DNA of 64,000 nucleotides from a virus (taxonomy: Duplodnaviria; Caudoviricetes), in the IMG/VR virus record IMGVR_UViG_3300014039_000012, positions 32,001 through 96,000 of that record, one strand, 5' to 3'. The notes under the pieces are model-generated. The model was not told where the DNA came from. It did not search any database and was given only the letters and a program-made list of their open reading frames with translations. Shown here one piece after another: positions 3,208 to 56,618 of the stretch (positions are counted from its first letter, which is position 1; each line of letters begins with the position of its first letter). The position numbers and the translations under genes were made by a program.

Positions 3208-6138
3208 ATGGCAATTTCTTATAAACATAAAATTTATACAATTCTTGGTACACCAACCACTTTGTCCGAAGATGTTGTTTCTGTTACAAATAGTGTTGGT
3301 GTACCAACAAAAGATTATACAATTAAAGGTAAGACGATTGTCTGGAATCAGTTACTTCAAAATGGAATATTCAATGATTCAACTGGATGGACAGGCGTAC
3401 AAGGAAGTATATCCGTAAGTAATAATGTGCTGAAATATATTCCAAATTCCACGACTGGTACTTCTCATAGATTAAAAACAACCTTTGAGACACAAAAAAA
3501 TGGGAAATATTTTGTTTCTGCTATTATGACCGCAGAATCTGCGGGAACGGGAGTAATTGAATTTTCGAGAGGATATGTAAGACTCGCAAAATCGTTGTCT
3601 GCGAACAGTCGAACGGTAGTTGAGGGAATTATGTCGATTGGTGGAGATGAAGACGAATATAGTGTGTTGCAATTCTTTGTAAATGATTCGGACGATCTTG
3701 GAAGCGTTACATTCACTATTGAACGACTTTTTGTATGCAATCTCACCCTCATGTTCGGTACAGGCAACGAACCCGCGACCGCTGCTGAATTCCGCACGAT
3801 GTTCCCGAATGATTATTATTCTTACGAACCCGGAGTTTTAAAAAGTATTTCTGGTTATGATAAAAAGTCAGAGATGTTAAAACGCGGTTTAATGTTGAAT
3901 AAAGCTATGTTTGCCGGAAATAACGTTGTCGACAGAAATGGGATTGATTTTACATATAATAATGGTTCAATCACTATAAATGGAACCGCAACTGCACAGG
4001 CGGAGTATCGTCTTTTCGCTTCTGCTGATTCGGGCAGAACTATTCTTAACATAAAAGGAAATACAAAATATTTATTTTTATGCCATCCCGGTTCTCAAAA
4101 TAGTACGTCTTATTGGGTTTTTGGAGGAACTGACGATCCTGTCTTTTCTTATGATGAAATATATGCGCCAGGCAAAATTGTTTCAAGAGATACGGATAAA
4201 ACTGGAACGTGTTACTTTATTTTAAGAGTTCCAAGCGGGAAAACTGCCAATAACGAAGTTATGACACCGCAGCTGTTTAATTTGTCTGCTATTTTTGGAT
4301 TAGGTAATGAACCTTCTACGGTCGCTGAATTTTTAAGTTATTTCCCGTCAGATCAATATGATTATACGACCGGAGAAAAAAAAGAGAACCTCGGAGATAT
4401 TCAATTACAAAGCAGTCTTCCTCAAAGATTTCAGTTAAGTGATAAGAGAAATTATTTTACAAACACTGTTAGCGGCGTTACATTTACCAACAACGGCGAT
4501 GGAACAATGACATTAAACGGAACGGCGACTGCCACTATATGGAGACCGCTTCAACTTGGAATTTATTTTATTCCAATTGGACATAAAGTTATGTTAAGCG
4601 GAACACCTTTCGCTCAAGGATCATGGCGATGTTTGTTATACGACGGATCTGATTCGGAGCATGGATCGGATACAAGCGGAACTGGAGTAATTTATACACA
4701 ATTATATGGGTATTCTAATCCATATTTTTATGTCGCACAAAATTACGTTTGCGATAATTTGGTATTTAAGCCTCAATTATTCGACCTAACAGAAATGTTC
4801 GGATTAGGAAACGAACCAACAACTACGGCGGAATTTTGGCAAAGAATTCCAGAAGCTCTTTATAAGACTGATAAAAATGCCTATAGGACTGTCGGTGTAC
4901 AATCTTCGAAATATTTCCCTGATGGAATGAGAAGCGCTGGTTCTGTTTATGACGAAATTAACTTTTCATCACAAAAGGCAATTAAGAGGATTGGTTCTGT
5001 GGACTTGGGGACGTTGAATTGGACATATGAATCAACAGCTTCTCACGAACGTTTTACCGCAAATGTAAGCGGAATGAAGTTAGCTTCAGCGACTTCGGTA
5101 AAAGGAAATATTGTATGTTCAAAATATATTACAACTTCTGCTGATGATATCTGGCTACATACTGCAGATAAAACGATCGCTTCACATAATACCGTGGCAC
5201 AAGTTTGGGTGTATGATTCCGCCTATACAGACGCCGCCGCCTTCAAATCCGCAATGTCGGGTGTAATGCTCTATTACGAACTCGCAACTTCCGTTGAAAC
5301 AACAATTACACCGTCTCTTCAAGCTCTTTCTACTTTTAAAGGATTTACCTCTTTTTCAGCTCCGAACTCTTTAACACAGAATGGACCGTTCTCGGTTACG
5401 TATTACGCAGAAGGCGGAGAAAATCCTGAAAAAGGTTGGCTGACAAGTTACAAGAGAAAGCTTTATATGGGGAAAAACATTGAATGGAATCAGCTGTTTG
5501 ATAAAAATGCAACACCGAGTCGTAACAGTACTGCAATCACATACTCCGTAGACGGCGATATGAACACTCTGACCACTACGAGCGCTATAACGATATCGCA
5601 GTTTAATTTTCAGTGTTCTACGGTGTCTGGACATAAGTATATGATCTGCGCGAAATCGTTAGAGTGGATATCTCCAAACCATAGCAATCTGTTCGTGGGA
5701 AAAGAATCCCATCCAGATATGGCTTCGTATGCGATACTGACATCAGATAATTTGTCGAAATTTTTCACCGCGACGGGTGATACCTGCTATATCAAAAGTT
5801 ATATTTCGTATTCAGCTGGTGATTATGAATTTAGAATGAACGGTTTACAACTATTCGATCTTACTCAAATGTTCGGCGCGGGCAACGAACCCGAAACCAC
5901 AACAGATTTTTGGTCGTATTTTCCAAATAAAGTATATCCGTACAATGCCGGAGAAACTCAACCGTTATTTAAGATTTCAAGAAAGAATTATTTATATTCT
6001 GTAGAACAACCAAAACTTGCTGCTCCTACTAATTTAAGCATTAGTGGAAGTGTTTTAAGTTTTGATTCAGTTGAAGGTGCAACGAGTTATAATATCTTAG
6101 CAGATGGAACAAGCATTGGGGTATATGTTCCGTCATAA
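3208..6138 (+). CDS. Virion accessory/receptor-binding protein with four (D/N)LxxxFGxGNEP repeats and a C-terminal half Fn3-like module
   Basis: SD AAGGAG. Repeats NLTLMFGTGNEP, NLSAIFGLGNEP, DLTEMFGLGNEP, DLTQMFGAGNEP separate beta-rich domains. Confidence 0.7.
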   Translation: MAISYKHKIYTILGTPTTLSEDVVSVTNSVGVPTKDYTIKGKTIVWNQLLQNGIFNDSTGWTGVQGSISVSNNVLKYIPNSTTGTSHRLKTTFETQKNGKYFVSAIMTAESAGTGVIEFSRGYVRLAKSLSANSRTVVEGIMSIGGDEDEYSVLQFFVNDSDDLGSVTFTIERLFVCNLTLMFGTGNEPATAAEFRTMFPNDYYSYEPGVLKSISGYDKKSEMLKRGLMLNKAMFAGNNVVDRNGIDFTYNNGSITINGTATAQAEYRLFASADSGRTILNIKGNTKYLFLCHPGSQNSTSYWVFGGTDDPVFSYDEIYAPGKIVSRDTDKTGTCYFILRVPSGKTANNEVMTPQLFNLSAIFGLGNEPSTVAEFLSYFPSDQYDYTTGEKKENLGDIQLQSSLPQRFQLSDKRNYFTNTVSGVTFTNNGDGTMTLNGTATATIWRPLQLGIYFIPIGHKVMLSGTPFAQGSWRCLLYDGSDSEHGSDTSGTGVIYTQLYGYSNPYFYVAQNYVCDNLVFKPQLFDLTEMFGLGNEPTTTAEFWQRIPEALYKTDKNAYRTVGVQSSKYFPDGMRSAGSVYDEINFSSQKAIKRIGSVDLGTLNWTYESTASHERFTANVSGMKLASATSVKGNIVCSKYITTSADDIWLHTADKTIASHNTVAQVWVYDSAYTDAAAFKSAMSGVMLYYELATSVETTITPSLQALSTFKGFTSFSAPNSLTQNGPFSVTYYAEGGENPEKGWLTSYKRKLYMGKNIEWNQLFDKNATPSRNSTAITYSVDGDMNTLTTTSAITISQFNFQCSTVSGHKYMICAKSLEWISPNHSNLFVGKESHPDMASYAILTSDNLSKFFTATGDTCYIKSYISYSAGDYEFRMNGLQLFDLTQMFGAGNEPETTTDFWSYFPNKVYPYNAGETQPLFKISRKNYLYSVEQPKLAAPTNLSISGSVLSFDSVEGATSYNILADGTSIGVYVPS

Positions 6139-6142
6139 ATTA
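6052..6142 (+). repeat. 91-bp perfect direct repeat, copy A (copy B 31138-31228)
   Basis: Identical gttttaagttttgattcag...ccgtcataaatta; about 55 further bp upstream match imperfectly. Confidence 0.95.
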
Positions 6143-6171
6143 AATTTCAAAAGGAGAAAAAATAAAAAATT

Positions 6172-6471
6172 ATGGCTTGTAGAAGTTGTGATTTAAAGAG
6201 AATTTATAAGCTTTTTGAAGAGAAGAAGCGCCGCGAAGCAGAGGAAGCAAAAGCTCTTGCTGAAGAGGCTGAACTCGAAAGAAAGCAAGAAGAAGAGAGA
6301 GCGCGTAAAGAAGCGGAAGAAGCTACCAAACGCGCTCGTAAAAAGAAAGTTTACGAACCGGTAGAAGCTGTTGCTGAAACAGTCGAAAAACCGGTTATTG
6401 AAGAAGTAAAGGAAGAAATTTCTGTTGGGTCCGAAATAGTTCAACCAGAAGAATCTTTCGAGATGATTTAA
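6172..6471 (+). CDS. Small Glu/Lys-rich coiled-coil protein with N-terminal CxxC
   Basis: SD AAGGAG; MACRSC then charged helix. Confidence 0.65.
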   Translation: MACRSCDLKRIYKLFEEKKRREAEEAKALAEEAELERKQEEERARKEAEEATKRARKKKVYEPVEAVAETVEKPVIEEVKEEISVGSEIVQPEESFEMI

Positions 6472-6554
6472 AAAACAGGTGTGCGGGCGGGTTAGAGAAA
6501 ACCTCCGCCCGCCCGTATACTTAAAAATATTATAAAAAAGGAGGTTAAATAGAA

Positions 6555-9500: not shown

Positions 9501-10931
9501 TTTGTCAATCTTGCTAACGATATTGACAGAATTAAGATTAAAAATGGTTCTTATTTAAAAGTGGTTGATGAAAGTGGTATTTTATCCAACATTTGGCAAA
9601 ATTCAAATGAGTTCCATAATACTTCAATCTGGAAAAAGGCAGATCAAATTCCGTCCGGAGACAGAATTAATGTAGCTAACTTTAAATATGCAGAAATAAA
9701 AAATAAAGATGGAAGCTATTCAAACTCTTATCTTAATGTTTCTGGGCCATATAACTCTTATGATTCCGAAGAATCTCTTAAAAACCCGATAAACCCGAGG
9801 CAGCAGTTATTTAATATTAACACAAAAGACAGAGATGTTTTTCGATGCAATAAAACAAAAGATAATCCAAATGGCGTTGCTTTTAACATTAATCAGCCAG
9901 ATAAATTAATTTGGCTTGATTATACTCCAACTGAAAATCAAAAATCTGTTGTTATTGATGCGGACGAAAATGGCGCACTAACACAATCGATGACTGTTAT
10001 GGAAAATACGCTTTTATATTGGCCAAGCGAAGATAAAGAAGAAAAAACAAAATGGAAAGATGGAATTTATATCGAAAGCGGTCTTGAAAAAACATTGATT
10101 GGACAGATTTTTGTTAACGATGAAGTGGTTAAATCGGAATATCTTGATGCCGTAACTCCGGTTAATTATAGTAAGTCTGGACTGACGCAACAAATTCAAG
10201 TTTCTCAAAATATTAAAGAACGTAAAGTAATTACCGATTATGAATTTACATTTAGAATTTTTGTTAACACTAATAATTTTAGCGTCGATCAGTTACGTAG
10301 TAGATGTTATGTTAAAGATATTTCAACTCCCGTTCAAACATATAATATCGTTGAGAATTTAACAAATGTGACTGCGAATACAGGTAATCCAAAAGTTATT
10401 AAAGAAAATCAAACCGTAACTCTTAAGTACGCGGTAGATAATGAATATCAATTCCCGTCATCTGTAACCGTAGAAAATTGTACAATTGTTAGTTGGAGTT
10501 ATAATTCCAATATAGGAACTCTTATTATTAAAGATCCGACAGGCGATGTTAATGTTACGATTGCTGGAAATGTCGTTGTTTATAATATCGTAGAGCGCCT
10601 GACGAATGTAATAAAAGTAGGGACGCATCCAACAACCATTGCAACAAATCAAACAATTGCTCTTGTTTATGCTGCGGCAGCAGGATATAATTTACCAGAC
10701 GTAGTTAGAATAACCGGTGCTACGAACGACTGGAAACGGCCAACCGGAACTTTGACGTTAACGAATCCAACAGGAACAGTGATGATTGAGATTGCCGGGA
10801 CATTGCCTAAGCTTGATACGCCTACTGGAGTAAGTATTACCGGCGACACATTGACTTTTAACGAGGTGGAGAATGCTGAGCAGTACGAGGTGTTTGCTGG
10901 CGATGCTTCGTTGGGGATATATATAGTGTAG
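6555..10931 (+). CDS. Large multi-domain tail/baseplate structural protein (Ig/Fn3-like modules)
   Basis: SD GGAGG; 1458 aa; two YNIVE(N/R)LTNV Ig-like repeats and a terminal half-Fn3 module; ends in TAG. Confidence 0.7.
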   Translation: MAIFKPTDCSPFNGTFDISENSADLPIIFECKVDTSNTIVTGYSIEIYDSNNELVFPSENREIGPVISNVTYLSDLKSYVINNFSSSIPNMRNINSGLNGTYLEIPFYVSSTDSTAGSTVSRNQMSSGLVEGQTYTWKITLYQEVKKDGSFPPREEKYYDMTVASGTVIGSTEKRIQTALIDSDDRVVDNLVLVDKFIQPVQIQGLSNYHEDPVKWTQGGPEEFPFVAARSLITGYDSTYGYIYPSTSADNAFVDGQITADAASGFQIYKNGNNPSNLGATDMVEFIYDAYSFRGTMTWKTSAAKPEQSHWEQVYITEGKPSDVYYPFYDSNYGSYPLTGGERIIFNDIQNSKVEFDGSYYGSPYNGIFYPSFFSKEALNNNVIFAGTYTFKQKPSVTSFTGEQDFSFLTTNNRTGAILECNKVKITSTTMWYVEKSNNNFVAYSLNSGWYNNGYQTITVESDQEVSSDFFAWFSQNVNTIPYQVTVIWNRTTDASNWGTLSNKIVYCRRDSKNYEINTNTQVGEINKTPFKFVEEEPVKIFNVAEQVSETQVAVGIGNNRYVFYINRKISVLSSIVLEDGVDITKDCSFEAKGGAVLYTPSAVQSANPVATISYIPYDKKDYTGVIFYNQKALPDVSGYLYIRPSININKNMIFKELTTTGSFTWFNINSFNKDYNYIKYKLGDGNLKENSTFNPTPDKTRYQIKSFYKDSDYNPFSIYKDPTIVSTISGNVIESGGFENNIITRNFTVTSTYDQNNYIQWKSYQWFLYDSAKRTILEKTDERYDGEITATFYGLDPQKYYILSLVLQTNTGKIIEIDYVIYTDFTETAEQKDLVEAEFDCDTLAMKANLKLVNTVLAPDADEYLSGSTALTKDTAYYYDQDNFYKKDGEVIASIDSGTGVLKITGQNALNYSKSFSDYAIDSSTRTGSIQTSSDEIVIEGAFTFSEDYNGNIFSISRDDNTNATVEISIPQAIQNIDSEGFVNLANDIDRIKIKNGSYLKVVDESGILSNIWQNSNEFHNTSIWKKADQIPSGDRINVANFKYAEIKNKDGSYSNSYLNVSGPYNSYDSEESLKNPINPRQQLFNINTKDRDVFRCNKTKDNPNGVAFNINQPDKLIWLDYTPTENQKSVVIDADENGALTQSMTVMENTLLYWPSEDKEEKTKWKDGIYIESGLEKTLIGQIFVNDEVVKSEYLDAVTPVNYSKSGLTQQIQVSQNIKERKVITDYEFTFRIFVNTNNFSVDQLRSRCYVKDISTPVQTYNIVENLTNVTANTGNPKVIKENQTVTLKYAVDNEYQFPSSVTVENCTIVSWSYNSNIGTLIIKDPTGDVNVTIAGNVVVYNIVERLTNVIKVGTHPTTIATNQTIALVYAAAAGYNLPDVVRITGATNDWKRPTGTLTLTNPTGTVMIEIAGTLPKLDTPTGVSITGDTLTFNEVENAEQYEVFAGDASLGIYIV

Positions 10932-11543
10932 ACCGGCGAAACGTGGGCGTCGAATGAAGATCTATCTGTCTCGACGGCTACTGTTATTTATGCCTGGAAA
11001 GTATTTGAAATTGACTTTCACAGTAACAATATATCTTATGTGCGATTGAGTTTTCCGGATGATTTTTTATTGGACTATAGTGACACTAAAGTATATAATG
11101 CAAATGGTTGTTTTATGGGTTGGTTGGATGACGCCTACCACGCCATCACCTTTTCTATGTCCCAACTGGTGGCCTTTTGTCTGACTGCAAGCGAATGGGG
11201 CGAAATAGGGGCGGCAACCGAATATACGCCGACATGGAATGTAAGCGATTTTGCTCCAAATGGAATTACCGTTAAAGTTAACGACGATGAAATTTCAAGT
11301 CCATATACATTAATTAACGGAGACAGAATAACATTGGATTCTGCAGATGCTATTGTTATTAATGGAGTGGTTTATGTAGAGAACACACGCTTTGATTTAT
11401 CAAACGTTGATATTATTATAACAAGAGACTTGACTCCAAATTTATACTCCAGTAATTCAGCACTTATCATTAACTATATTGCCCAACAATGTATAAACCT
11501 TCCGGTGTATAGGTTAACCGGAATTTCAAAAACAAATAAATAA
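10932..11543 (+). pseudogene. Degenerate in-frame continuation of 6555-10931 beyond a single TAG
   Basis: The same frame continues TGETWASNE...IDFHSNN..GWLDDAYHAITF, homologous to the module in 55812-56618. Its expected end (PTG.LL...LQANGAK) lies in shifted frames at 11162-11208. Confidence 0.6.
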
Positions 11544-11587: not shown

Positions 11588-12622
11588 ATGGGGAAACGCT
11601 CAACGGTATACCATGAACTGGTCACTCCAGAAAAGTGGGACAAAGTTAATAAAAAAAATAAAAATCTAATCAACGAATTTACGGATTATTTGCGTTCGGC
11701 AAACAAATCTCCTGCGACAATCAAACAATATGAAGCACAATTACGTACTTTTTTCGTGTTTGTGTTGGAGAGATGCGAAAATAAATTTTTTGTTGATCTA
11801 AAAAAGAGAGAATTTGTTAAATATTTTGGATATTTGACAAATGAATTGGAGGTTTCTCCGAACAGAATTTGTTCAATGAGAGCCGTCCTTTCAAGTTTAT
11901 CTAATTTTATTGAAAGAATTTTGGATGAAGATTATCCGCAGTTCCGCAATCTTGTAAAAGTTTTGGAACCAGTGGATAAAGCTTTTGTTCGCGAGCGTCC
12001 TGCGCTAACAATGGATCAAATTAAAGAATGTTTGGAAAAATTGGAAGCGGATAAGAAATATCAAGTCGCTTGCTGTCTTGCGGTTCTTGCGGCAAGCGGA
12101 ATGCGCAAAAGCGAAGTAATTCAAATGAAAATGGAATATTTCGAAAAAGATAGACTAATTTATAATGGACTTGCCTATGAAACAGATAAGATTCGTACAA
12201 AGGGTCGTGGAAAAGCCGGGAAAGTTGTAACGAGAATTGTGTTTCGTAATTTGGTTGATTTAGACCATTATATTGATTTGTGGCGCAAAAAGCGCGAAGA
12301 ACTTGGGATCAAAGATGAATGGATGTTTGTTGTTTATCACGATGGTTCGTATGAGCAAGCAACCCAATCGACAATTAATTCTTTTGCAAGAACAATTGGA
12401 AAATATCTTGGAGAAGACTTTTTCGTCCATAATGTGAGACATACAACTTCGACGGCGTTGGAACTTGCTGGATACCCGATTGATGTTGTGCAGACAATTT
12501 TCCGTTGGGCAGATCCAAAAATGGTTAAATATTATTCAAATATTAGCGATACACAGTCATTGGAAAACTTTTTTGCTAATATGAACAAAGAAGAAAAAGA
12601 AGAAAGTGAGGAAAATAAATAA
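11588..12622 (+). CDS. Tyrosine recombinase (XerC/D-like)
   Basis: N-terminal SPATIKQY core-binding motif; catalytic GMRKSE, HNVRH, FRWAD (W at the second His position) and VKYY. Confidence 0.9.
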   Translation: MGKRSTVYHELVTPEKWDKVNKKNKNLINEFTDYLRSANKSPATIKQYEAQLRTFFVFVLERCENKFFVDLKKREFVKYFGYLTNELEVSPNRICSMRAVLSSLSNFIERILDEDYPQFRNLVKVLEPVDKAFVRERPALTMDQIKECLEKLEADKKYQVACCLAVLAASGMRKSEVIQMKMEYFEKDRLIYNGLAYETDKIRTKGRGKAGKVVTRIVFRNLVDLDHYIDLWRKKREELGIKDEWMFVVYHDGSYEQATQSTINSFARTIGKYLGEDFFVHNVRHTTSTALELAGYPIDVVQTIFRWADPKMVKYYSNISDTQSLENFFANMNKEEKEESEENK

Positions 12623-30984: not shown

Positions 30985-31224
30985 ATGGATGAAACTAAAA
31001 GAGTTCCAGAACTTCCAACATATAAAAGATATTATAAAAATGAATCTTTAATTGGTACGGGAGCATACAAATACAGAAGATATTCCACAGAACAACCAAA
31101 ACTTACAGCACCTACTAATTTAAGTATCAGCGGAAACGTTTTAAGTTTTGATTCAGTTGAAGGTGCAACGAGTTATAATATCTTAGCAGATGGAACAAGC
31201 ATTGGGGTATATGTTCCGTCATAA
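30985..31224 (+). CDS. 79-aa protein: basic Tyr-rich peptide plus half Fn3-like module
   Basis: C-terminal 44 aa nearly identical to the end of 3208-6138. Confidence 0.7.
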   Translation: MDETKRVPELPTYKRYYKNESLIGTGAYKYRRYSTEQPKLTAPTNLSISGNVLSFDSVEGATSYNILADGTSIGVYVPS

Positions 31225-31228
31225 ATTA
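31138..31228 (+). repeat. 91-bp perfect direct repeat, copy B
   Basis: Identical to 6052-6142. Confidence 0.95.
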
Positions 31229-31329
31229 GTTCACAACAGAATATTTTGGTACTTGAATCTCAATAAACCCTCATCAAGCGGTAGTATAGGTTAGACCGCT
31301 TTGATTAAAAAAGAAAGGAGCCCTGAAGC

Positions 31330-32511
31330 TTGAAGATTAAATTTTCAATTGGTCCTGGTAACACTCTTAAGACTGGAGTTTCTGGGACTTCGGAATCATT
31401 AAATTTGCAATATATTAAATCAAATTTTTTCTACGTTTCCACTTCGGAAAACGGCATTGCTCCACGAGCAGATAACGGGGCTCCTGAAAAAATTGAAAAT
31501 GCAAATATTTTAGACGTTCTTGATGAGAATCTCCGTGCTGTTCTTGGTATTTTTAATTTTGAAAATGTTCGAGGAACAGATGGTCAATTAATGACCACGG
31601 CAGCAGCACAGGGCGTATCTAATGCAGACCAGTCTCTATATTCAATTTCTGTTTATAAAAAAGAAATTTGGTACGATCGAGAAACTGGAAAACCAATGGA
31701 GCAAGATGTTTGGACTCCGGTTGCGTTAGAGGAGGCTTCGAGCGTAATTCGAGATTTCAATATTGGGAATGGTCGTTATTATAAATATGTTTTCCGACTC
31801 GTAGAAAATATGGTCGGCGGTGGAGTTGAATATCAGTCTGGAATTATTGTTCCAATCAAAACTAGTTGGCAAGGTTGGTCAATTGTGGAACTTCACGAAA
31901 CCGATAATCCAAAAGTGTTTACTGCTGCTCCAAAAGATGTTTGGAAATTTAAATATAATGTTTCTACGGGAGCACAAACGCAGAATATTTCTAAAACACA
32001 ACAAGATACATTGTCTCGTTATCCGATATTTAGCCACGGTGTGAAAAATGCGGTTAGCGGTAGCGTAACGTGTTTATTGGGTCGAGAAATGATTAACGCC
32101 AATTATACTAATAAAGAATGGGTATATTCACAAGATCCAAATACAACCGAACCGAGTTTGATTTGGCAAGAAACTTATGGAACAACAAAAAATCTTGGTG
32201 GCTATAAAGAACGTCTTGGAAGAACACAATCTGCTTGCGGGTCTAACGTGGATTATCTTTCCGCATCTGTTCTTGGATTTAGAAATCTAACGTCTAACGA
32301 GGCGGTAGATATGTTGGACAAATGGCGTGATGTTTGTTATTCTGGAAATCCGAAACTTTTGAGGGATGAAAAAGGACAGACGTTTATTATTCAAATTACC
32401 GATCCAACAAATACAACAAACGAAACTTGGGATAGACAACCAGAAGAAATTTCGTTTAACTGGATTGAAATTGCGGACGCAAAAGATTGTCGCGTAATCC
32501 AATCTGATTAA
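31330..32511 (+). CDS. Tail/baseplate structural protein (distal-tail-like)
   Basis: SD AAGGAG plus TTG start; WKFKYNV..QN.SKT..DTLSRYP and PKLLRDEKG motifs; next to a hub-like gene. Confidence 0.5.
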   Translation: MKIKFSIGPGNTLKTGVSGTSESLNLQYIKSNFFYVSTSENGIAPRADNGAPEKIENANILDVLDENLRAVLGIFNFENVRGTDGQLMTTAAAQGVSNADQSLYSISVYKKEIWYDRETGKPMEQDVWTPVALEEASSVIRDFNIGNGRYYKYVFRLVENMVGGGVEYQSGIIVPIKTSWQGWSIVELHETDNPKVFTAAPKDVWKFKYNVSTGAQTQNISKTQQDTLSRYPIFSHGVKNAVSGSVTCLLGREMINANYTNKEWVYSQDPNTTEPSLIWQETYGTTKNLGGYKERLGRTQSACGSNVDYLSASVLGFRNLTSNEAVDMLDKWRDVCYSGNPKLLRDEKGQTFIIQITDPTNTTNETWDRQPEEISFNWIEIADAKDCRVIQSD

Positions 32512-37940: not shown

Positions 37941-39983
37941 ATGACAAGACAAGAATTTTTTGAGATGAAAGCTGCCGGCGCTCTTTGGGACGTTGGCGTT
38001 TCGATTAACAGAACTAACCCGCTTCCTCTTGACAAGAACGCGGTATTTGAAAGCTATGATAAGGCGCTTGAATATGCAAAGGGTGTTCTGTCCTATCCCG
38101 GTCAGTTTATCGCCGTTGTTGCAGAAGATAGCACTGTAACCGGTTATATTATTACTGTTGCCGGCGGAGATGGTGCAACGCTGCAGAAGCTTGCTGCGCA
38201 AACCTCTACCGGAGACGTCGTCGCAGATCTTGCCGCTCTGACCAACCGTGTTGGAGTGCTTGAGACTTCTGTTGGCGACATCAAAACCGAAATCGGTGCG
38301 AAAGCAGCTGGCGAAACCGCCGCTTCCGGTATTTACAAGTATGTTGATGATAAGGTTGCGGCGGCTACTCCTGAAGGATACGCCGGTGTTAAAGCCGACG
38401 TTACGAAGCTGGTTGGCGTTGACAAAGGAGAAGATGGCAGAGCGAACAAGTCTGTTAGAGAAATCGCGGCTGAAGAGGTTGCAAAAATCGTTGATGGCGC
38501 AGATGCGAGTTTTGATACCCTGAAAGAGGTTTCTGACTGGATTTCTACGCACGGAACTGATGCCGCCGCGATGAATACGCAGATTAATGCCAATAAATCT
38601 GCGATCGAAAAGCTGAACGGGGCTGCGGAGACAGAAGGTTCTGTTGCGAATACTGTCGACGCTGCAATCAATGGCGCTCTGAAAGTGGACGGCAAAGATA
38701 AGTATGCTCTTGCAACCGATCTAACTGCCGCTAATGGTAAAATCGCTGCTCTTGAAACCAAGACTGCTGGCTTGGTGGATGCAGACGGTGCAGATACGAC
38801 CGTCAAAGCATATGTTGATGCTGGTGATGCGAAGGTCGAAGCTAAAGTTACAGCTCTTTCGACTAAGGTTGAAAACCTTGGTTCTCTTGCTTCGAAGAGC
38901 GAAGTCGCTGAGAGTGATCTGGCTGCTGCGCTGAAAGCGAAGATTGACGGTAAGGCAGATAAGGCCACCACGCTGGCTGGCTATGGCATCGAAGATGCCT
39001 ACACGAAAACCGGCGCGGAAGGAATGGTTGATACCAAGATTACCGCGCTTGGTCTTGGAACGATGTCTAAAGAGGTCGCAGCAGATTACACTAAGACCGC
39101 AGATCTTGAAACTGCTCTTGCTGGCAAGTATGACGCAGCAGGTGCAGCAAAGGAAGTCGACGATAAACTTCCTGCAATGGATACTGCAATTAAGGCTAAT
39201 ACCGATGCAATCACTAAGCTGAATGGTGCGGCAAGTGTAACCGGTTCTGTTGCCGAAAAGATTCAGACCGCAATTACCGATCTTGATCTTGCAAATACAT
39301 ATGCTGCTAAGTCCCATACTCATGCAATGGAGCAGGTCACTGGCCTGGCAGAAGAGTTTGCAAAGTATCAGGCAAAAGGTGATTACGCGCTGAAGTCCGA
39401 TCTTGATGGAACCGATGCCGAAGTTGAAGCACTGACCACTCTTGTTGGCACGCTTCCTGCCGACGCAAAAGCAAAGACTGTTGTTGAATATGCAAAGGAA
39501 GTTGCCGATGCGGCTACCGGCAATGCTGCTACTGTTGGCGCAAAAGTTGATACTCTTATTGGCGATGATGCTAATAAGTCCGTTAGAACGATTGCTAATG
39601 AAGAGCTTGCGGCCGCGCTAATCCCTGAAAACGCACAGGATTCTCTCGATACACTGAAAGAGATTGCGGATTGGATTCAGTCCCACCCGGCAGAAGTAAC
39701 AGAGATGAACAGCAAGATTACCGCTCTTGAAGGCAAGGCTCACGAGCACGCCAACAAGACCGTTCTCGATGGAATCACTGCTGATAAAGTTTCGAAGTGG
39801 GATTCTGCTCTTCACGATGGCGATATTCCTGCTGCTACCGCTGCCGCGCTCGGCCTCGTGAAGGTGGACAACACTTCTATCGAAGCTTCTGCCGACGGCA
39901 CTATCGGCGTGAAGGCTGTTGACGTTCAGAAACTGTTTGTTGCCGAAGGCGATGAATTTATTCTAGATGGCGGAAAAGCTTAA
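37941..39983 (+). CDS. Ala-rich coiled-coil fibre protein
   Basis: Two DTLKE(V/I).DWI..H repeats; KATTLAGYGI.DAY motif; ends FILDGGKA. Confidence 0.75.
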   Translation: MTRQEFFEMKAAGALWDVGVSINRTNPLPLDKNAVFESYDKALEYAKGVLSYPGQFIAVVAEDSTVTGYIITVAGGDGATLQKLAAQTSTGDVVADLAALTNRVGVLETSVGDIKTEIGAKAAGETAASGIYKYVDDKVAAATPEGYAGVKADVTKLVGVDKGEDGRANKSVREIAAEEVAKIVDGADASFDTLKEVSDWISTHGTDAAAMNTQINANKSAIEKLNGAAETEGSVANTVDAAINGALKVDGKDKYALATDLTAANGKIAALETKTAGLVDADGADTTVKAYVDAGDAKVEAKVTALSTKVENLGSLASKSEVAESDLAAALKAKIDGKADKATTLAGYGIEDAYTKTGAEGMVDTKITALGLGTMSKEVAADYTKTADLETALAGKYDAAGAAKEVDDKLPAMDTAIKANTDAITKLNGAASVTGSVAEKIQTAITDLDLANTYAAKSHTHAMEQVTGLAEEFAKYQAKGDYALKSDLDGTDAEVEALTTLVGTLPADAKAKTVVEYAKEVADAATGNAATVGAKVDTLIGDDANKSVRTIANEELAAALIPENAQDSLDTLKEIADWIQSHPAEVTEMNSKITALEGKAHEHANKTVLDGITADKVSKWDSALHDGDIPAATAAALGLVKVDNTSIEASADGTIGVKAVDVQKLFVAEGDEFILDGGKA

Positions 39984-40004
39984 TTGTTAAAATAAATGTT
40001 CTGT

Positions 40005-40031
40005 GACCACGGAAGAATCCATTCCGTGGTC
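40005..40031 (+). terminator. Stem-loop after 37941-39983
   Basis: GACCACGGAA / TTCCGTGGTC; no U-tract. Confidence 0.45.
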
Positions 40032-40181
40032 ATGAGGAAATAAATATAGCAAAAAAAATTATCTACACCGAAAAATGTTAAAATATCTAGTGATGGAACA
40101 TTGAGTTTTGACGCTGTTCCAAACGCTACAAGTTATGATATTTTGGTAAATAATACGGTTATAGGAAATAGTGGAGGAAAT

Positions 40182-42017
40182 ATGGCAGAAAAAGTATTAA
40201 AAACAAGAATCCAATTAAAATATGATGAATATGCTAATTGGACTAAAAACGATCCAGTCCTTAAAAAGGGCGAAATGGCAGTTACGGTTATCCCGACTGG
40301 TACGTCCGTCGAACAGACAACGCCTCCTGCAATTATGTTTAAAGTAGGAGATGGCACAAAAAAATTTAGTGCGCTTCCGTGGGCAAGCGCTCTTGCCGCA
40401 GATGTTTATGCATGGGCAAAAGCCGCTACTCCGCAAGCTATTATCGATGAAGCACGCGACGGTTTAATCGGCGCAGATAGTGTTGTTAAAACGCTTAATA
40501 GCCTCAAGGGAGATATTACACTTGCTGTGGCAAGTGGCGAAAAGCGTCTTGTTGTTGGGGAAAGTGGACAGAGCATTACTCTTGCTCTTAATTTTACAGA
40601 TACAGAAGCAGCCGCTCTTGCATCTGGCATTACGGCAAACAAAGTTAAAACATACGATGGTTATGCGACAAGTAAGCAGGATACAATCGATGCGACTCAT
40701 AAACTTTCTCATGAACTCGTTAGCGGACTTGGGACTGCGGCGACAAAGAGCGCAGATGCTTTTGATGCGGCTGGCGCTGCCGATGCAGTTCTTGGTAAGT
40801 CGACTGATGCCGCTACCGCTAACACCGTTTATGGCGCAAAGAAAGCTGCGGCTAATGCGCAATCTACTGCTGACTCGGCAAAAACAACAGCAGAGGCTGC
40901 TCTTCCGAATGCTACATTTGAAAGCTTTAAAACCGCAAATGATACAGCACTTGCTGGAAAAGTAGACAAAACGACGACTGTTAATGGTCACGAGTTGTCT
41001 GCGAATGTTACACTTACAAAGTCGGACGTTGAACTTGGTAACGTTGAAAACAAGGCACTCGATACAACTGTTACGAAAGATTCCGGGAACTATATCACAT
41101 CTGGAGCCGTAAAGACTGCCATTGATAACGCCATTGGTGGTGTTACACAGTTTGATATTGTTAAATATGACAGTTTCGATAAACTCCCAAAAACCGGTAA
41201 GAAGGGCGTTATTTATATCATCGCTCATTCCCACAGCGACAGCAATGATAGTTATGATGAGTATATCTGGAACACCGCGCTTACAACACCGGCGTATGAA
41301 AAAATCGGCAACACCGACGTAAACCTTTCTGAATATGTTAATACGCTTTCTGGAACAGCTAATAGCGGCGTTATTACCAATCTTACAAAGTCTGGGAATA
41401 CCCTTACCGTAACCTCAAAGAGTCTTGCCACAATCGATCCTACCGCAAATGGAACTGGCCTTACATTTATTGATACCGTTTCACAGGCTGCGGATGGTAA
41501 GATTACTGCTACAAAGAAGACCGTTTCGGATGCAACGACTACGGCCCACGGTCTTATGACTGCGGCAGATAAGGTAAAACTTAACGGGATTGCTGAAGGC
41601 GCTACAAAAGTAACGGATGCGACCGTTTCTGGCTGGGGATATATCAAGTCTTATACTGATACAAACCAGAAGATTAAGGCGAAATCTGGATCGACAGATG
41701 TTACGTTCGGAGACAACGATGTTATCGAATTTGTCGCCGGTTCTAATGTTACGATTACTCCAGACAAGACGAATAAGAAAATTACAATTGCCGCTACGCA
41801 GAAGTCTGATACCGCAATCAATACTCTGATTGATACAAAGCTTACGGCATATACTACTGCTCATCCTGGCGTTGATAAAGTTGGTACGGTCACGAGCGTA
41901 GCTGCGGCGGCTGATTCTGGTTTCAAGATTACCGGAACAGCATCAACGACCCCGACAATTGATTGGGACGATACTGTCACGCTTGTTTTCGACTGCGGAG
42001 ATTCAAGCGATATCTAA
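40182..42017 (+). CDS. Fibre protein with Mtd_N-type N-terminus
   Basis: SD GGAGG before ATG 40182; KTRIQLKYD...NW...PVLKKGE...KVGDG; GLMTAADKVKLNGI motif. Confidence 0.75.
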   Translation: MAEKVLKTRIQLKYDEYANWTKNDPVLKKGEMAVTVIPTGTSVEQTTPPAIMFKVGDGTKKFSALPWASALAADVYAWAKAATPQAIIDEARDGLIGADSVVKTLNSLKGDITLAVASGEKRLVVGESGQSITLALNFTDTEAAALASGITANKVKTYDGYATSKQDTIDATHKLSHELVSGLGTAATKSADAFDAAGAADAVLGKSTDAATANTVYGAKKAAANAQSTADSAKTTAEAALPNATFESFKTANDTALAGKVDKTTTVNGHELSANVTLTKSDVELGNVENKALDTTVTKDSGNYITSGAVKTAIDNAIGGVTQFDIVKYDSFDKLPKTGKKGVIYIIAHSHSDSNDSYDEYIWNTALTTPAYEKIGNTDVNLSEYVNTLSGTANSGVITNLTKSGNTLTVTSKSLATIDPTANGTGLTFIDTVSQAADGKITATKKTVSDATTTAHGLMTAADKVKLNGIAEGATKVTDATVSGWGYIKSYTDTNQKIKAKSGSTDVTFGDNDVIEFVAGSNVTITPDKTNKKITIAATQKSDTAINTLIDTKLTAYTTAHPGVDKVGTVTSVAAAADSGFKITGTASTTPTIDWDDTVTLVFDCGDSSDI

Positions 42018-42028
42018 TTTTTTTGTTA

Positions 42029-42046
42029 ATAAAATACTGCTTTTAT
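42029..42046. promoter_or_regulatory. ATAAAA-N6-TTTTAT site, copy 2
   Basis: ATAAAA tactgc TTTTAT, 11 nt after the stop codon. Confidence 0.5.
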
Positions 42047-42047
42047 T

Positions 42048-42070
42048 AGGAGGGGTTTTACCCCTCCTTT
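42048..42070 (+). terminator. Intrinsic terminator
   Basis: AGGAGGGGT / ACCCCTCCT stem plus short T run. Confidence 0.7.
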
Positions 42071-42148
42071 ATGGGCGGATCTGGAACGGACGGTCCGTCC
42101 AGTTCTCCAAAAATTTGGAAACGATAATTTCGAAAGGAGAAATTAAAA

Positions 42149-44308
42149 ATGGCAACTGAAAGAACTTTAAAGACACGAGTTATATTAAAGCATGACACAG
42201 AAGAAAACTGGAACAAGGCAACGACATTTGTTCCGAAGAAAGGCGAGGTGATTATTTATGACCCCGACAACGCACATCCTTATTCGCGACAAAAGTTAGG
42301 AGATGGAGAAAAGACGGTAGTTAATTTACCGTTTTTTGAAAACATAGGTCCCGTTGGACCAACTGGTCCTACTGGACCTATAGGTCCTCAAGGGCCAACC
42401 GGTGCAGGTGGAGCAGTAGGCCCGACTGGAGCAACTGGAAGCGTTGGACCTACAGGTTCTCCCGGAAAGGATATAACAGAAATAGATATTAATAGCATTG
42501 ATACGTTTTTAAGTGATAGTCCTGTTAGTGGATCATTTGGACCATATGGAACTATGATCATTTCTGGAAGAACCGTAGTAGATGTTGGAGGCGATGCCAA
42601 AAGTATTGATACAATTTTTGATACCAGCATTGCCCCTGGAACATATATTAAAGCGACATTTAATGAAGACCCTAATTATTTTTCAATTGATGTTGATAAA
42701 GATAAACTTGGATCAGAACTCTCAACTCAAGTCGGAACTTCCGATAATCTCTCTCATCTTTCTAAAATTCTTTACACAGAAGAGTCCGCTATTCCCGCCA
42801 CTCCAGATGCTACGATTGAATATGCCGTAACAGATTTTATCGGCTACGAAGACCTTGATTCAAGTTTACAAGCTCAGATTGATAAAATGGGAAATACCGG
42901 TCCTACAGGCCCTGCTGGAGCAAAGGGAGACAAGGGAGATACAGGCGCTACGGGAAATGTTGGTCCGACAGGATCTACAGGTCCAGTAGGTCCTACTGGT
43001 TTACAAGGAGAAATTGGGCCTCAAGGACCTACGGGTGAAACAGGTCCGACCGGAGAAGTGGGGGCACCAGGTCCTCAAGGCCCAAAAGGCGATGGCATTG
43101 AACAAATCAACGAGTTCAACACAGGAGTCCCCCAAACCGTCATTTATGACACAACCACTGGAGCAGAAATAACCAGCAATGCCACAATTGATTATGTGGA
43201 TAGCACTACCGGACAAACCAAAGGCCGCACCTTCACAATGAGAAGCAAAATGCCCATTCAACCCGGCAAGTACATCAGCATTGATGCCAACAGCGAAAGT
43301 GATGCCATTGAAGTAAAAGTCGATGATACGGCGCTTTCGTTGGATTATGTGCCAATTCCTAAAGGATTAAGTGCGGACAGTAGCTTATCTGTTGAAAATG
43401 GCAAATGTGTTTGGTATACGAACTCAAGCTACGCAGTGCCCAAGTCATTTGTTTGGAGAGACGCTAATGGAGACTGTGATTTTAACAATGTAATATTACA
43501 AGCTATCAGGGCGAATCGTCAAGGCGCATATGAAACATCTCTTGCACAGATATATTTCTCTTGTGCCGATGTCTATTTTTCTGTAGCTAAAACCTCAACC
43601 GACACAGGAACGTTAGGACCAATCGACTTTTCAAGAATTCAGGCCTACCCTAACATTCGTATTAACTACGACAATCAGGTATACATTCTTCAAGACCCAA
43701 ACACCGCGCCAGATGGCACACTCAACTATGTCCACATTGATGAAGATGGAACAACTAAGTGCTTTTCAATTACTGTTTCTGATCGTTCTTGGAAAGTTAC
43801 GACAATACCAACTTCAAGTATTAAAATTGGAACGGCAAATTCTTCTGAAAATCTTTCAAATATTGCTTATTTGGCGAACAACGACCTTCCTGCTTCTCCT
43901 GCATCCAATACAGAATATGCGATTACCGATTTAATTGGGTATGACGATCTTGATTCTGAACTACAGGCAAAAATTGATGCTGGAGGTTCTGGCGGAGGAG
44001 AATACCTACCTCTTAGTGGTGGAACATTGTCTGGGAGCTTATCGGTGAAAGATGTAGCCAGAGAAGGCGTGGACATTACCCCATCGGGTATTTATTTTTA
44101 TGTAAGTGGCGGCAGTGGTAGTGGCCAGCTTATTGGGATTTCTGATGAGGCTGGAACTTCTTCGGCAATTGCTCTTTCGCAAAAAGGCGTAGCCGATAAT
44201 TATGTTGCAAGAACAGATTTTCCCTCTAATTTGTTGAAATACAAAATTGTAACTTCTACTTCCCAAATTGGAACTGACGCGAACACAGCTTATCTGATTC
44301 TTGAATAA
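42149..44308 (+). CDS. Collagen-like fibre protein with Mtd_N-type N-terminus
   Basis: LKHDTEENW...PKKGE...KLGDG; GPTG repeats; internal duplication EYA(V/I)TD.IGY.DLDS.LQA.ID. Confidence 0.75.
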   Translation: MATERTLKTRVILKHDTEENWNKATTFVPKKGEVIIYDPDNAHPYSRQKLGDGEKTVVNLPFFENIGPVGPTGPTGPIGPQGPTGAGGAVGPTGATGSVGPTGSPGKDITEIDINSIDTFLSDSPVSGSFGPYGTMIISGRTVVDVGGDAKSIDTIFDTSIAPGTYIKATFNEDPNYFSIDVDKDKLGSELSTQVGTSDNLSHLSKILYTEESAIPATPDATIEYAVTDFIGYEDLDSSLQAQIDKMGNTGPTGPAGAKGDKGDTGATGNVGPTGSTGPVGPTGLQGEIGPQGPTGETGPTGEVGAPGPQGPKGDGIEQINEFNTGVPQTVIYDTTTGAEITSNATIDYVDSTTGQTKGRTFTMRSKMPIQPGKYISIDANSESDAIEVKVDDTALSLDYVPIPKGLSADSSLSVENGKCVWYTNSSYAVPKSFVWRDANGDCDFNNVILQAIRANRQGAYETSLAQIYFSCADVYFSVAKTSTDTGTLGPIDFSRIQAYPNIRINYDNQVYILQDPNTAPDGTLNYVHIDEDGTTKCFSITVSDRSWKVTTIPTSSIKIGTANSSENLSNIAYLANNDLPASPASNTEYAITDLIGYDDLDSELQAKIDAGGSGGGEYLPLSGGTLSGSLSVKDVAREGVDITPSGIYFYVSGGSGSGQLIGISDEAGTSSAIALSQKGVADNYVARTDFPSNLLKYKIVTSTSQIGTDANTAYLILE

Positions 44309-44323
44309 TCGAGGTACTTGTAA

Positions 44324-45907
44324 ATGTATTATGTTAATGGAAAACAAGTAAAGGAAATGTTAATGAAAGGTAACGATGGGTTTTTACATAGAACCGCTTA
44401 TGGATATTTAAGTAATAGTAGAAAGTTTTATAGTAGAGATTCCTCTTATGAAAGTCCTCTTGTCGATGTCCACGTTTATTGTGAAGGCGAGCGTATTTTA
44501 ACGAGTCCACAGTTTGTAAAAAGATCCGAATTAGGCTCTACGACAATTACGGTGCAAGATACTTTTCAATATGATTTAAAAGTTTCTAGCCCAAGTGCTT
44601 CTGGAGTAACCAATTTTTCTGGAACTAAAGGAAGAAATCCGACATTTAAACTTGATCCAACCGTTATTGGGACAAAATCAAGTATAAATATTTATTTGTT
44701 AAAAATACCAGAATCTGCTTCTGATTGGACCGACACAGGTTCTTATTCAATAATATTTGACGATTATAATTTTTCGTCGATTCCTACTGCAGCGCTTTAC
44801 AAGGATTGTGGGTTCGAAAACGCGGCAGCATATGTGAAAGGTTTTGGAAATGTTTATAATTTATGTTATGTTTCTGGATTAGGAATTCTTCCAGCCCCAG
44901 GACATGAAACTTTTGCGTATGTATCGTTAAATCTTGTAAATCCTCCAGAAATTTCCTTTTCGGGTTCTCAATCTCTTGTTCATTTTGGTTATTTACCAAA
45001 AGACACAGCTGAAGCAATGGGGTTTACCGCTGAAGAAAATCCAAACGGAGAGTCAAAAGAATCAGCAGATTATTATGGCTGGGGTTGTTGGGCGGATAAT
45101 GAACAGTGGTTTTGGTCCGACGATGAATTGCGCGAAATCTTTTCGTCTGGAAGCGGAACAATTAATCAAATGTTTCTTGATAGTTTTGTAACAAATTCAA
45201 CGCTAACTTATGCTGATACGTGGCACTGGGGAGTTTATGATCTTGACGCCAATGGTTTAGGTGGAAGTATTTCGTTTATTCACAATCCTGTATTTTCGGA
45301 TGGATGGATTTTTGATCACGATGACACACAAATGTTTTCTGATATTATCTCGCTACAAAACACGACTCTCACAGATGTATTAAATACCAATTTTTCAAGC
45401 CCTCAAGGAACAATAACTATAATTATTCCATATTCTCAACAAAGTATTAATTCGACTGATACGATGGGAGGGCTTTGGGGTGAGTTAGAGAACGATTCGA
45501 TATTAACGACTGATATTTTTAATTATGCAGAGCAATTCTTTAATGCCGATACTAATATCAAACCTCTTCCGACAGACAATCTTGTTACAGGTACTTTTGA
45601 AACAAATATCGGCTCTACAGATGGATATTTGTATTGTTGCAGTAATTTTGGAAATTCTGAAATAATGACAGCTACGGAATCGAACGTCGTAACATTCAAT
45701 ATTGGAACAGATACAAGTATTGTATATCTTGGGGCGAGAAACAAGAATGCTGTTTTAAGTTTGAATTTTAATGAGTCGACGAGTGGGCTTGTTGATATGT
45801 TTAATAGTGAAAGATTTAGTTATTATAAATTGCTTCCATTTATTACCGGACAAAATGATGGTGCCATTTCTACTGATGGAACAATTGGTTTGGAAATTTC
45901 TGAGTAA
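44324..45907 (+). CDS. Hypothetical virion protein (acidic, aromatic-rich; possible receptor-binding tip)
   Basis: 527 aa; follows a fibre gene; MYYVNGKQVKE start. Confidence 0.55.
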   Translation: MYYVNGKQVKEMLMKGNDGFLHRTAYGYLSNSRKFYSRDSSYESPLVDVHVYCEGERILTSPQFVKRSELGSTTITVQDTFQYDLKVSSPSASGVTNFSGTKGRNPTFKLDPTVIGTKSSINIYLLKIPESASDWTDTGSYSIIFDDYNFSSIPTAALYKDCGFENAAAYVKGFGNVYNLCYVSGLGILPAPGHETFAYVSLNLVNPPEISFSGSQSLVHFGYLPKDTAEAMGFTAEENPNGESKESADYYGWGCWADNEQWFWSDDELREIFSSGSGTINQMFLDSFVTNSTLTYADTWHWGVYDLDANGLGGSISFIHNPVFSDGWIFDHDDTQMFSDIISLQNTTLTDVLNTNFSSPQGTITIIIPYSQQSINSTDTMGGLWGELENDSILTTDIFNYAEQFFNADTNIKPLPTDNLVTGTFETNIGSTDGYLYCCSNFGNSEIMTATESNVVTFNIGTDTSIVYLGARNKNAVLSLNFNESTSGLVDMFNSERFSYYKLLPFITGQNDGAISTDGTIGLEISE

Positions 45908-45992: not shown

Positions 45993-46030
45993 ATTCATAA
46001 TTTATTTACAAAAAACTTTTCTAAAACTAC

Positions 46031-46273: not shown

Positions 46274-49996
<3,723 letters not shown>

Positions 49997-55045: not shown

Positions 55046-55573
55046 ATGTTAAAATATTTCGATTACAGTGTAACGTTCGCCGAATTTCCAGATGAAATTT
55101 CTCTTTGTGTGAATATTTCTAATTGTCCAAATAAATGTGAAAAATGTTCGGAATCTTGGTTGGCACAAGATATCGGGACAGTATTAAATGAAGACTCAAT
55201 TTCTGAATTAATAGAAAAAAATCCCGGAATTACCCTATTTGGGTTTATGGGTGGAGATAATGATCCAGAAGAGCGGGTTAGGCTATCTAAATTTATTAAA
55301 AATAAGTTTAAAATTAAGACCGGCGTTTATAGTGGGGCAAATAGTATTTATCTAAATGGAATTGAAACATTTAATTATTATAAATACGGGAAATGGATTT
55401 ATCCGTTTGACGAAAACGGGGTTTTAATTTCAAATAAACAGTGCGGCCCAATTTGTTATGTTGGAACAAACCAAAAAATGTTTAAAATTATAGATGGAAA
55501 AATGACGGATGTAACATATTGGTTTCAGAAAGATAAAATATCTAATCTTAAAAACTTTGTTAAAGAGGAATAA
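55046..55573 (+). CDS. nrdG: Anaerobic RNR activating radical-SAM protein
   Basis: CPNKCEKC; FMGGD; follows nrdD. Confidence 0.85.
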   Translation: MLKYFDYSVTFAEFPDEISLCVNISNCPNKCEKCSESWLAQDIGTVLNEDSISELIEKNPGITLFGFMGGDNDPEERVRLSKFIKNKFKIKTGVYSGANSIYLNGIETFNYYKYGKWIYPFDENGVLISNKQCGPICYVGTNQKMFKIIDGKMTDVTYWFQKDKISNLKNFVKEE

Positions 55574-55575
55574 TT

Positions 55576-55788
55576 ATGGTAACAGCGAAAGTTAATGACG
55601 ATAAAGAACTTGTTACAGAAATTAGAGAGAAAATCAAGGAGAACGATGGATATTGTGCCTGCGCCATTAAAAGATGTCCAGAGGTAAAATGTCCTTGCTC
55701 TAATTTCCGTCAAATGTTAAAAGAAGGGCGAGTTGGAGAGACTTGCCATTGTGGACTCTACGAGATTGTAGAGATCCCACAAAAATAA
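55576..55788 (+). CDS. Ferredoxin-thioredoxin reductase catalytic-subunit-like protein
   Basis: GYCAC...CPC...CHCGLY. Confidence 0.75.
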   Translation: MVTAKVNDDKELVTEIREKIKENDGYCACAIKRCPEVKCPCSNFRQMLKEGRVGETCHCGLYEIVEIPQK

Positions 55789-55811
55789 TATTTTTATAAG
55801 GAGGAATTTAA

Positions 55812-56618
55812 ATGGCAATATCTGTTGATTTAACTACTCTTTCTGGTTATTCTACCTTAGAAGAGGGAAAGACTTATAAAATATCTTGCCAAGCGATGGC
55901 AACTGGATATCAAAACTCCGATATGTCTGCGACTGTAAATTATACAGTTCCGGAAACAACAAAAACTCTTCCGGCTGGAACGTATGAGTGGGTTACAGAT
56001 AGTTCTGGTTGGTCGTCTTGGACAGAAGAATTTAATTTTATAAGCAATGGAAAACAATACACAAAAATGTCTTTGGTTGCCGGAACAAGTAGCATTCGAT
56101 TTTACTATTATGGAAATTCTGAGACGGCCGGAAGAGTTCTTGTGTCAAATGGATCGCAATGGACAGACGAAGTTTATAAAACGTTTACAATAATTGAAGA
56201 CCAGACGGTTTCTTCAAGCTTTTATACGTGGGCCGTTACTAATGGAAATCTCGAGAAAAAAGAACCGGAAACATGGCTATTGAATGAGACTCTCGACAAC
56301 GTACTTCGTGTCTATTATGGTCCATATGATTCTATTGAAAATTTTGCAACTTCTGTAGTAAATGGAAGTGGAGCATATTGGGTAATTGGTTTTACAAGTT
56401 ATGATCAGAATTATGGCGCTATTGGGTATGATCAATCTTCGGTGGCACAATCAGGAGCAGACGGCGCGGCAACATTGGTGTACTCTGTTGTTGAAACTAC
56501 GGGTGCCAAACCGACGACATGGTGGGTCGATGACGCATATCGGACTATCACATTCTCGCAGCCTGTTACCAATGAAACCCTACTTGCTTGGCTTGAAACG
56601 AACGGAACAAAACAATAA
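55812..56618 (+). CDS. Virion accessory protein beginning with the C-terminal half of an Fn3-like domain
   Basis: MAISVDLTTL...TYKISCQAMATGYQNSDMS; two W.D..Y(K/R)T.T. modules. Confidence 0.65.
   Translation: MAISVDLTTLSGYSTLEEGKTYKISCQAMATGYQNSDMSATVNYTVPETTKTLPAGTYEWVTDSSGWSSWTEEFNFISNGKQYTKMSLVAGTSSIRFYYYGNSETAGRVLVSNGSQWTDEVYKTFTIIEDQTVSSSFYTWAVTNGNLEKKEPETWLLNETLDNVLRVYYGPYDSIENFATSVVNGSGAYWVIGFTSYDQNYGAIGYDQSSVAQSGADGAATLVYSVVETTGAKPTTWWVDDAYRTITFSQPVTNETLLAWLETNGTKQ

Follow-up and report, generated by a model that had tools for sequence, protein, structure and literature searches.

Complementary halves of an Fn3-like domain on tail-fibre-region proteins and on a distant protein of a gut phage

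The subject of this work is a 64,000-nucleotide (nt) stretch of a tailed-phage genome, bases 32001–96000 of the virus record IMGVR_UViG_3300014039_000012 (169,441 bp, 38.8% G+C), which we refer to as the window. We found that a fibronectin type III (Fn3)-like domain is present in this genome only as two halves on different proteins: the first half (N-half, strands A–C') forms the last 42–45 residues of the proteins P0001, P0002 and P0003, and the second half (C-half, strands E–G) starts the distant protein P0004. The two halves may rejoin in trans by fold complementation and thereby attach P0004 where the P0002 fibre ends, a proposal that we regard as evenly poised between right and wrong. We consider it the best explanation because the same split recurs in adjacent genes of other phages, and because two related genomes (G002 and G003) keep both halves and a third (G009) loses both.

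Translation of the window gave the N-half motif KLxxPxNxxIsGxxLsFdxVxxAxxYxIxxxxxxxG four times, always on the + strand. The open reading frame (ORF) 3208–6138, encoding P0001 (976 residues), ends with it at 6004–6135 (44 residues) directly before the TAA stop at 6136, and the ORF 6555–10931 of P0002 (1458 residues) does so at 10803–10928 (42 residues). P0003 is a small ORF of 79 residues (30985–31224) with a Shine–Dalgarno (SD) sequence GGAGGG 7 nt 5' of its ATG, in which a leader of 35 residues is followed by the N-half at 31087–31221. The fourth copy (40050–40178) has no start codon and shares its frame with an Mtd_N-like fibre gene whose ATG is at 40182. When the whole 169-kb genome was scanned in six frames with hidden Markov models (HMMs), that of the N-half being built from these four copies, we detected exactly four N-halves, one C-half and no complete copy of the domain. 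It is this absence of the contiguous form, in which both halves make up one chain of about 80–90 residues, that constitutes the finding. The positions given for the halves in the initial annotation were all borne out to within a few bases, and its statement that none of the N-halves runs on into strands E–G proved correct.

The C-half, as had also been proposed there, begins the ORF 55812–56618 (+ strand), which encodes P0004 (268 residues) and possesses its own SD sequence and ATG. It comprises residues 2–46 (nt 55815–55952; 55812–55952 with the start codon), the sequence SVDLTTLSGY...YKISCQAMATGY...SATVNYTV coming after the initiator Met-Ala-Ile, and P0004 was the sole match of the C-half model in the six frames of the genome (E value 1.4e-24). 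The remainder of P0004 (55953–56618) consists of two copies of a domain of ~100 residues, here called domain X, with the motifs GTYxW or ETWxLNE ... AYRTITF ... LLAWLxxNGTKQ. In homologs of P0004 with 38–66% identity, the C-half again follows directly after the start codon. Full-length homologs are 64–91% identical in the C-half, compared with 28–38% in the next domain (domain Y) and 48–57% in domain X. By these comparisons the C-half is the best conserved portion of the P0004 family, a pattern that is usual for a virion-anchoring end; indeed, a more conserved N-terminal and a less conserved distal part are also seen in phage receptor-binding proteins with an N-terminal virion anchor. P0004 itself matched no Pfam or PHROG family. 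For domain X, too, we found neither a family in Pfam or PHROG nor a clear match among structures; it is found in the window also at 10932–11160 and at residues ~385–480 of P0002, and many gut phages have it in proteins of the tail cluster, frequently beside half-domains.

The idea that both pieces belong to a single domain family, as its complementary halves, was supported, and the resemblance goes beyond chance. We searched 1.84 billion representative proteins with a profile of the four N-halves and obtained 4476 matches, mostly tandem arrays. Among the best 150 of these 4476 the N-half repeats with a period of 80–90 residues, and in 77 cases a C-half model made from P0004 homologs matches 9–26 residues downstream of the N-half. 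From 85 complete domains of unrelated proteins we built a complete-domain model of 83 positions. The N-halves of the window align to positions 2–35 to 2–38 of this model (E 3e-14 to 3e-11 with five target sequences; 9e-11 to 2e-8 across the whole genome in six frames), and residues 8–46 of P0004 align to positions 48–83 (E 1e-7), so that the model is covered at 2–38 by the N-half and at 48–83 by the C-half. The complete relative P0135 reads uninterrupted '...SSFGTV-STT-SVDLSTLSGW...'; compared with it, the window proteins break off and begin precisely between C' and E.

The label Fn3-like, which the domain had been given at the outset, appears reasonable from two weak matches. The Fn3 fold is a sandwich of seven strands in the sheets ABE and C'CFG. 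Among solved structures, the complete form is closest in sequence to the Fn3 domain of the GH31 alpha-N-acetylgalactosaminidase of Enterococcus faecalis (PDB 6M76, 7F7R): residues 147–224 of P0135 match residues 873–952 of the 6M76 chain with E 0.002, and the N-half profile matches chain residues 891–917 with E 0.007. The enterococcal domain resembles the complete form only weakly, and it lies undivided within a bacterial enzyme that is an LPXTG surface protein. P0001–P0004 gave no match to Pfam fn3 (PF00041) at E ≤ 1, queries of half length being unable to reach the cut-off, and the multi-repeat relative P0022 scored 42.8 bits overall with no single stretch over the threshold.

The same split was found in other phages, both related and unrelated, and is more general than the initial annotation could show. 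An independent test set was formed by P0140, P0137 and P0096, the N-half-terminated proteins among the best 150 of the 4476 profile matches, which had been obtained without any C-half information. In 3 of 3 cases the next gene starts with a C-half: MARISVDLTTLSGW... at 2 nt past the stop (locus L023), MPNIDLTTLPGW... at 65 nt (L024) and MATKNISIDIKDCAGY..., a weaker match, at 1 nt (L026). A metagenome scan for the C-half, seeded with a 7-row alignment, furnished two more adjacent pairs, L068 with a gap of 59 nt and L074 with a TAATG overlap. Over all loci, a C-half gene stands no more than 700 nt away from 7 of the 14 non-redundant N-halves in C-terminal position; the exceptions are mainly large phages, in which the partner is distant (the window, G002, G003) or missing (G009, G010). 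Judged from these gene arrangements, the split is one that recurs across adjacent, often translationally coupled genes, always at one junction. The fetched phage loci contain 43 unique orphan N-halves and 61 unique orphan C-halves next to 14 complete domains, which suggests that the split is widespread; halves are also present at the N-termini of fibre proteins (L003, L016). In three contigs we additionally observed a conserved intergenic element (CACCTTTCGGTG hairpin ... AACCGAAA ... AGGAG; L024:2357-2421, L059:1022-1077, L068:2930-2988), which sits between genes ending in an N-half or in domain X and genes starting with a C-half.

The comparison of related genomes is given for P0002 and P0004. 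In G002 and G003, too, the P0002 ortholog closes with an N-half, after which come TAA and a promoter; identity is 40% in the N-half and 55% in the body. Although ~160 residues are inserted before the N-half in the window protein, the N-half stays terminal in the orthologs too. G002 and G003 each carry one terminal N-half (P0002 ortholog) and one initial C-half (P0004 ortholog), and the complete genome G003 (137 kb, with terminal repeats) has exactly one N-half and exactly one C-half. The P0002 ortholog of G009, a 98% complete genome, comes to its end immediately short of the N-half position, and we found no P0004, no domain X and, in sensitive six-frame scans, no C-half. Since G009 loses both and G002 and G003 keep both, the N-half of P0002 and the C-half protein are present or absent together in the four related genomes examined (the window, G002, G003 and G009).

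If the two halves do join, one may picture the process as follows. Strands A, B, C and C' would be presented at the extreme C-terminus of proteins of the tail-fibre region, most surely P0002 and also P0001 and P0003, and strands E, F and G at the extreme N-terminus of P0004 with its two copies of domain X. After translation the two halves would bind and rebuild one beta-sandwich between two polypeptides, and P0004, probably a distal binding module of the virion, would thus be fastened onto the fibre end. That P0001 and P0003 serve as further docking sites is possible but doubtful. The AlphaFold2 (AF2) monomer of P0004 has a mean predicted local distance difference test score (pLDDT) of 66.5, with 82–92 in the C-half; here strands F and G are paired as a hairpin and the E segment is unpaired. 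The same C-half (F and G paired, E unpaired) was predicted in P0016, a protein that carries a C-half followed by an N-half. These models fit an incomplete sandwich, without proving one. A structural search with the whole P0004 model gave a top Z no higher than 4.7, and a search of the ESM Atlas for the P0004 fold returned nothing useful.

A number of observations weigh against joining in trans. P0004 lies 25–50 kb from the N-halves, and in the syntenic relative L001 its ortholog adjoins nrdD/nrdG-type genes (NRDD, Fer4_12) outside the fibre cluster, for which reasons the presence of P0004 in the virion is something we infer. The window has 3–4 N-halves for 1 C-half, that is, one plug for three expressed sockets, and the counts are unequal also in several complete genomes (G008 with 4 C-halves and 1 N-half). 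G009 and G010 encode N-half-only mini-proteins of 85 and 66 residues, respectively, and in neither genome (G010 is 100% complete) did six-frame scans find a C-half, even at E 1–10. The initial annotation had named the common occurrence of N-halves in genomes without any C-half as evidence against its proposal; G009 and G010 are such genomes, and this objection therefore applies in part. Internal orphan halves are common next to domain X (N then X, or X then C). P0137 ends in two tandem N-halves, and C-then-N dyads, in which the halves follow one another as they do across the border between two tandem repeats, are found in P0016, L010, L016 and L065. Pairing in cis within the P0016 dyad was rejected: AF2 leaves its N-half at a pLDDT of ~30 and unpaired with the C-half, and the short linker from G to A should forbid such pairing on geometric grounds anyway. 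With one exception, the positions that are ≥ 70% hydrophobic among complete domains are 88–100% hydrophobic in orphan halves as well; this speaks for joining, but the test is biased because the orphans were detected by HMMs rewarding those residues. Separately, no fused 'Rosetta-stone' form (N-half, C-half and P0004-like part) was found among the longer proteins, the one match, P0169, being itself C-half-started. Lastly, the gene 31330–32511, which lies just 3' of P0003, has a homolog in G009, the 'KLKFSIGPG' gene, that directly follows the P0002 ortholog (G009 41535-45100); P0003 may for this reason be what a rearrangement left of the 3' part of a gene. Of the attachment scheme first proposed, the complementary halves stand, backed by the recurrence of the split in other phages. 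Docking at several virion sites and interchangeable adhesins would have to rest, in this phage, on one plug and three sockets, and obligate pairing is weakened by the N-half-only genomes.

Several of these points agree with a different explanation, in which the half-domains are autonomous: they would pair with themselves (N with N, or three around a trimeric fibre axis) or pack on domain X, and they would co-occur because they belong to a common tail-fibre toolkit. The N-only genomes G009 and G010, the unbalanced numbers of the two halves and the frequent internal orphans, dyads included, speak for it, as do the tandem N-halves ending P0137, an N-half at each end of P0140 and the C-half that AF2 models confidently on its own. 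What makes us rate this explanation as unlikely is the 3 of 3 N-terminated proteins that were found without C-half data and yet precede a C-started gene, with two of the three junctions at 1–2 nt and the L074 overlap indicating coupling. Furthermore, the ends of the proteins coincide with the C'/E junction seen in the complete domain, and the terminal pair is one-to-one in G003 and lost as a whole in G009.

It is also conceivable, and in our view quite improbable, that the halves are functionless scars of recombination or gene fission inside a conserved repeat, with P0003 and the 40050 copy as such debris. The 3' ends of P0001 and P0003 indeed belong to a common 160-nt DNA repeat of 90% identity (family D6, + strand), whose first copy at 5994–6153 spans the N-half and 15 nt beyond the stop and whose second lies at 31080–31239. 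The position of P0003 relative to the gene order of G009 points to rearrangement, the in-frame TAG of P0002 corresponds to a Q in a homolog, and the 40050 copy has no start codon. Against scars stand the terminal N-half of P0002, which is kept in the orthologs in spite of the divergence and the insertion described above, the C-half as the best conserved part of P0004, the core residues kept in the orphans and the many unrelated loci at which the split is found. Debris may nonetheless account for the 40050 copy and possibly for P0003.

For the 40050 copy the description as vestigial is fair, given the missing start codon and the TAA and TAG just upstream. No other frame is open there, and a frameshift into this N-half was rejected: no upstream ORF is open in any frame, and the A8 run at 40051–40058, at the beginning of the copy, could restore only a frame with ATA as its first codon. 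Within the N-half stretch lies the SD sequence GGAGGA of the Mtd_N-like fibre gene that comes next (40182–42017, 611 residues). A strong 16-bp hairpin without a T-run (40003–40034, -25.4 kcal/mol, z -6.3) is located between the stop of ORF 37941–39983 and the start-less copy.

The end of P0002 needed a correction. It had been described as an N-half without strands E–G, which holds, but the TAG stop is followed by 203 in-frame open codons of a different domain (10929–11543 including the stop, + strand, in a region of 34% G+C). The stretch starts TGETWASNE and shows weak similarity to domain X (E 0.008). Whatever the nature of the TAG, the extension does not provide the missing Fn3-like half. 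A contiguous protein of 1240 residues in L016, '...GTYSPQ-TGETWVLN...', runs from the N-half into domain X and has Q at the position of the TAG codon of the window. The TAG could be a recent nonsense change, an assembly variant or a site of leaky read-through that yields two isoforms. An in-frame TAG directly 5' of a complete Fn3-like domain occurs also in G010 (131782-133059, minus strand), and leaky read-through could operate at domain junctions of fibre genes. Reassignment of a stop codon as the cause of the truncations was rejected: in a crude call of 180 ORFs the stops are TAA in 133, TGA in 38 and TAG in 9, a suppressor tRNA is not encoded in the genome, and nothing is open in any frame after the TAA stops of P0001 and P0003. 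That recoding by read-through or frameshifting removes the split altogether, giving longer products in which the N-half is not truly terminal, is highly improbable despite the open codons past the P0002 TAG, the L016 homolog and the TAG of G010, for the read-through product is domain X rather than strands E–G, TAG serves as an ordinary stop, P0001 and P0003 end in TAA with closed frames beyond, no suppressor tRNA is available, and the C-half gene lies far off with its own translation start.

The nearest known ideas are donor-strand complementation in pili and the docking of phage fibres by beta-sheet augmentation. In chaperone-usher pili of Gram-negative bacteria, one strand (G) is donated to the neighbouring subunit, which requires a periplasmic chaperone and an usher. 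Both there and here an incomplete Ig-like sandwich would be completed by strands of another polypeptide, and in pili the resulting join is modular, strong and orders the subunits. The domain studied here differs in that it is cut roughly in the middle (4 + 3 strands) and occurs in a phage tail-gene cluster; three or four strands are missing rather than the single G because the cut falls between C' and E. Pfam and PHROG scans of 35 window proteins gave no match to a chaperone or usher. The split domain is thus not a member of donor-strand complementation, though it may work in a similar way. SpyTag/SpyCatcher, obtained from a split CnaB2 domain, and split GFP are engineered systems in which fragments of beta-rich domains reassemble in trans, SpyTag with formation of an isopeptide bond. 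They are alike in having two fragments as plug and socket and differ in being man-made. The starting lysine of the N-half (PKL) is Q in several copies; an isopeptide bond is therefore unlikely, as we see no conserved Lys as a partner for the Asp that is invariant in the C-half. Fraser et al. are said to have described, in 2006, Ig-like and Fn3 domains displayed on phage structural proteins, some of them added by programmed frameshift. A C-terminal Fn3-like module and a possible adjoining recoding site (the TAG after P0002) are common to both cases, but the displayed domains are complete accessory domains on one chain, whereas the window has one half per chain.

In the podophages A1002 and GP4, fibre dimers dock on a 'rope' protein by beta-sheet augmentation (PMC13730344). 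Fibre subunits are there held to a carrier by a common beta-sheet, as would be the case here; however, the edge strands are supplied by complete domains, nothing in these phages is a split domain of which a complete homolog can be recognised, and their sequences are unrelated to those of the window (PMC13730344). Literature searches turned up no account of phage fibres with a split Fn3 or Ig domain, and a paper on modular adhesins of gut phages (PMC13370021) does not mention a split domain.

Concerning the setting, nearly all long ORFs of the window lie on the + strand, and the PHROG matches point to a big cluster of tail and fibre genes with collagen-like fibres, Mtd_N or hyaluronidase-type fibre N-termini and a phrog_1887 tail protein. 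A megablast search with 20 kb of the window matched no GenBank phage; relatives are present in IMG/VR and in gut metagenome assemblies. Long collagen-like Gly-X-Y tracts are found in three fibre-type ORFs (1192–3189, 42149–44308 and 46274–49996; repeat families D1 and D2), the last of which has four internal repeats of ~520–600 nt each (D3, D4). Five near-identical promoter cassettes TTGACA-N17-TATAAT of 57 nt (family D5) lie at 46013, 51125, 57866, 60501 and 62054. A tyrosine recombinase (phrog_1 integrase, E 9e-32) is encoded at 11588–12622, in the middle of the tail-gene cluster and directly 3' of the read-through ORF of P0002, an unusual place for a recombinase in a 169-kb phage. DNA inversion or a shufflon driven by this enzyme was rejected, as the N-half copies are all direct repeats with 0 on the minus strand. 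The gene 31330–32511 lies ~20 kb from P0002 in the window, and the stretch in between holds the integrase and an ORF of 2410 residues; compared with G009, this gene order points to a large rearrangement or insertion.

In summary, a common beta-sandwich is cut into 4 + 3 strands between two proteins, and if the halves do reassemble, they would form a natural plug-and-socket. One may speculate, tentatively and at somewhat less than an even chance, that gut phages possess a whole connector system, with N-halves as sockets and C-halves as plugs, placed at the ends of proteins or internally, and with C-then-N dyads as adaptors, in which fibre parts and interchangeable domain-X modules are chained or branched by fold complementation and swapped by recombination at the half-domain boundary. 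Joining in trans would explain how distal binding modules are attached and exchanged in gut phages with large, fast-changing tail-fibre clusters. It would furthermore allow better annotation of the many tail proteins that seem to end or start 'too early', and it would provide a small natural protein-ligation pair for engineering the host range of phages in laboratory strains.

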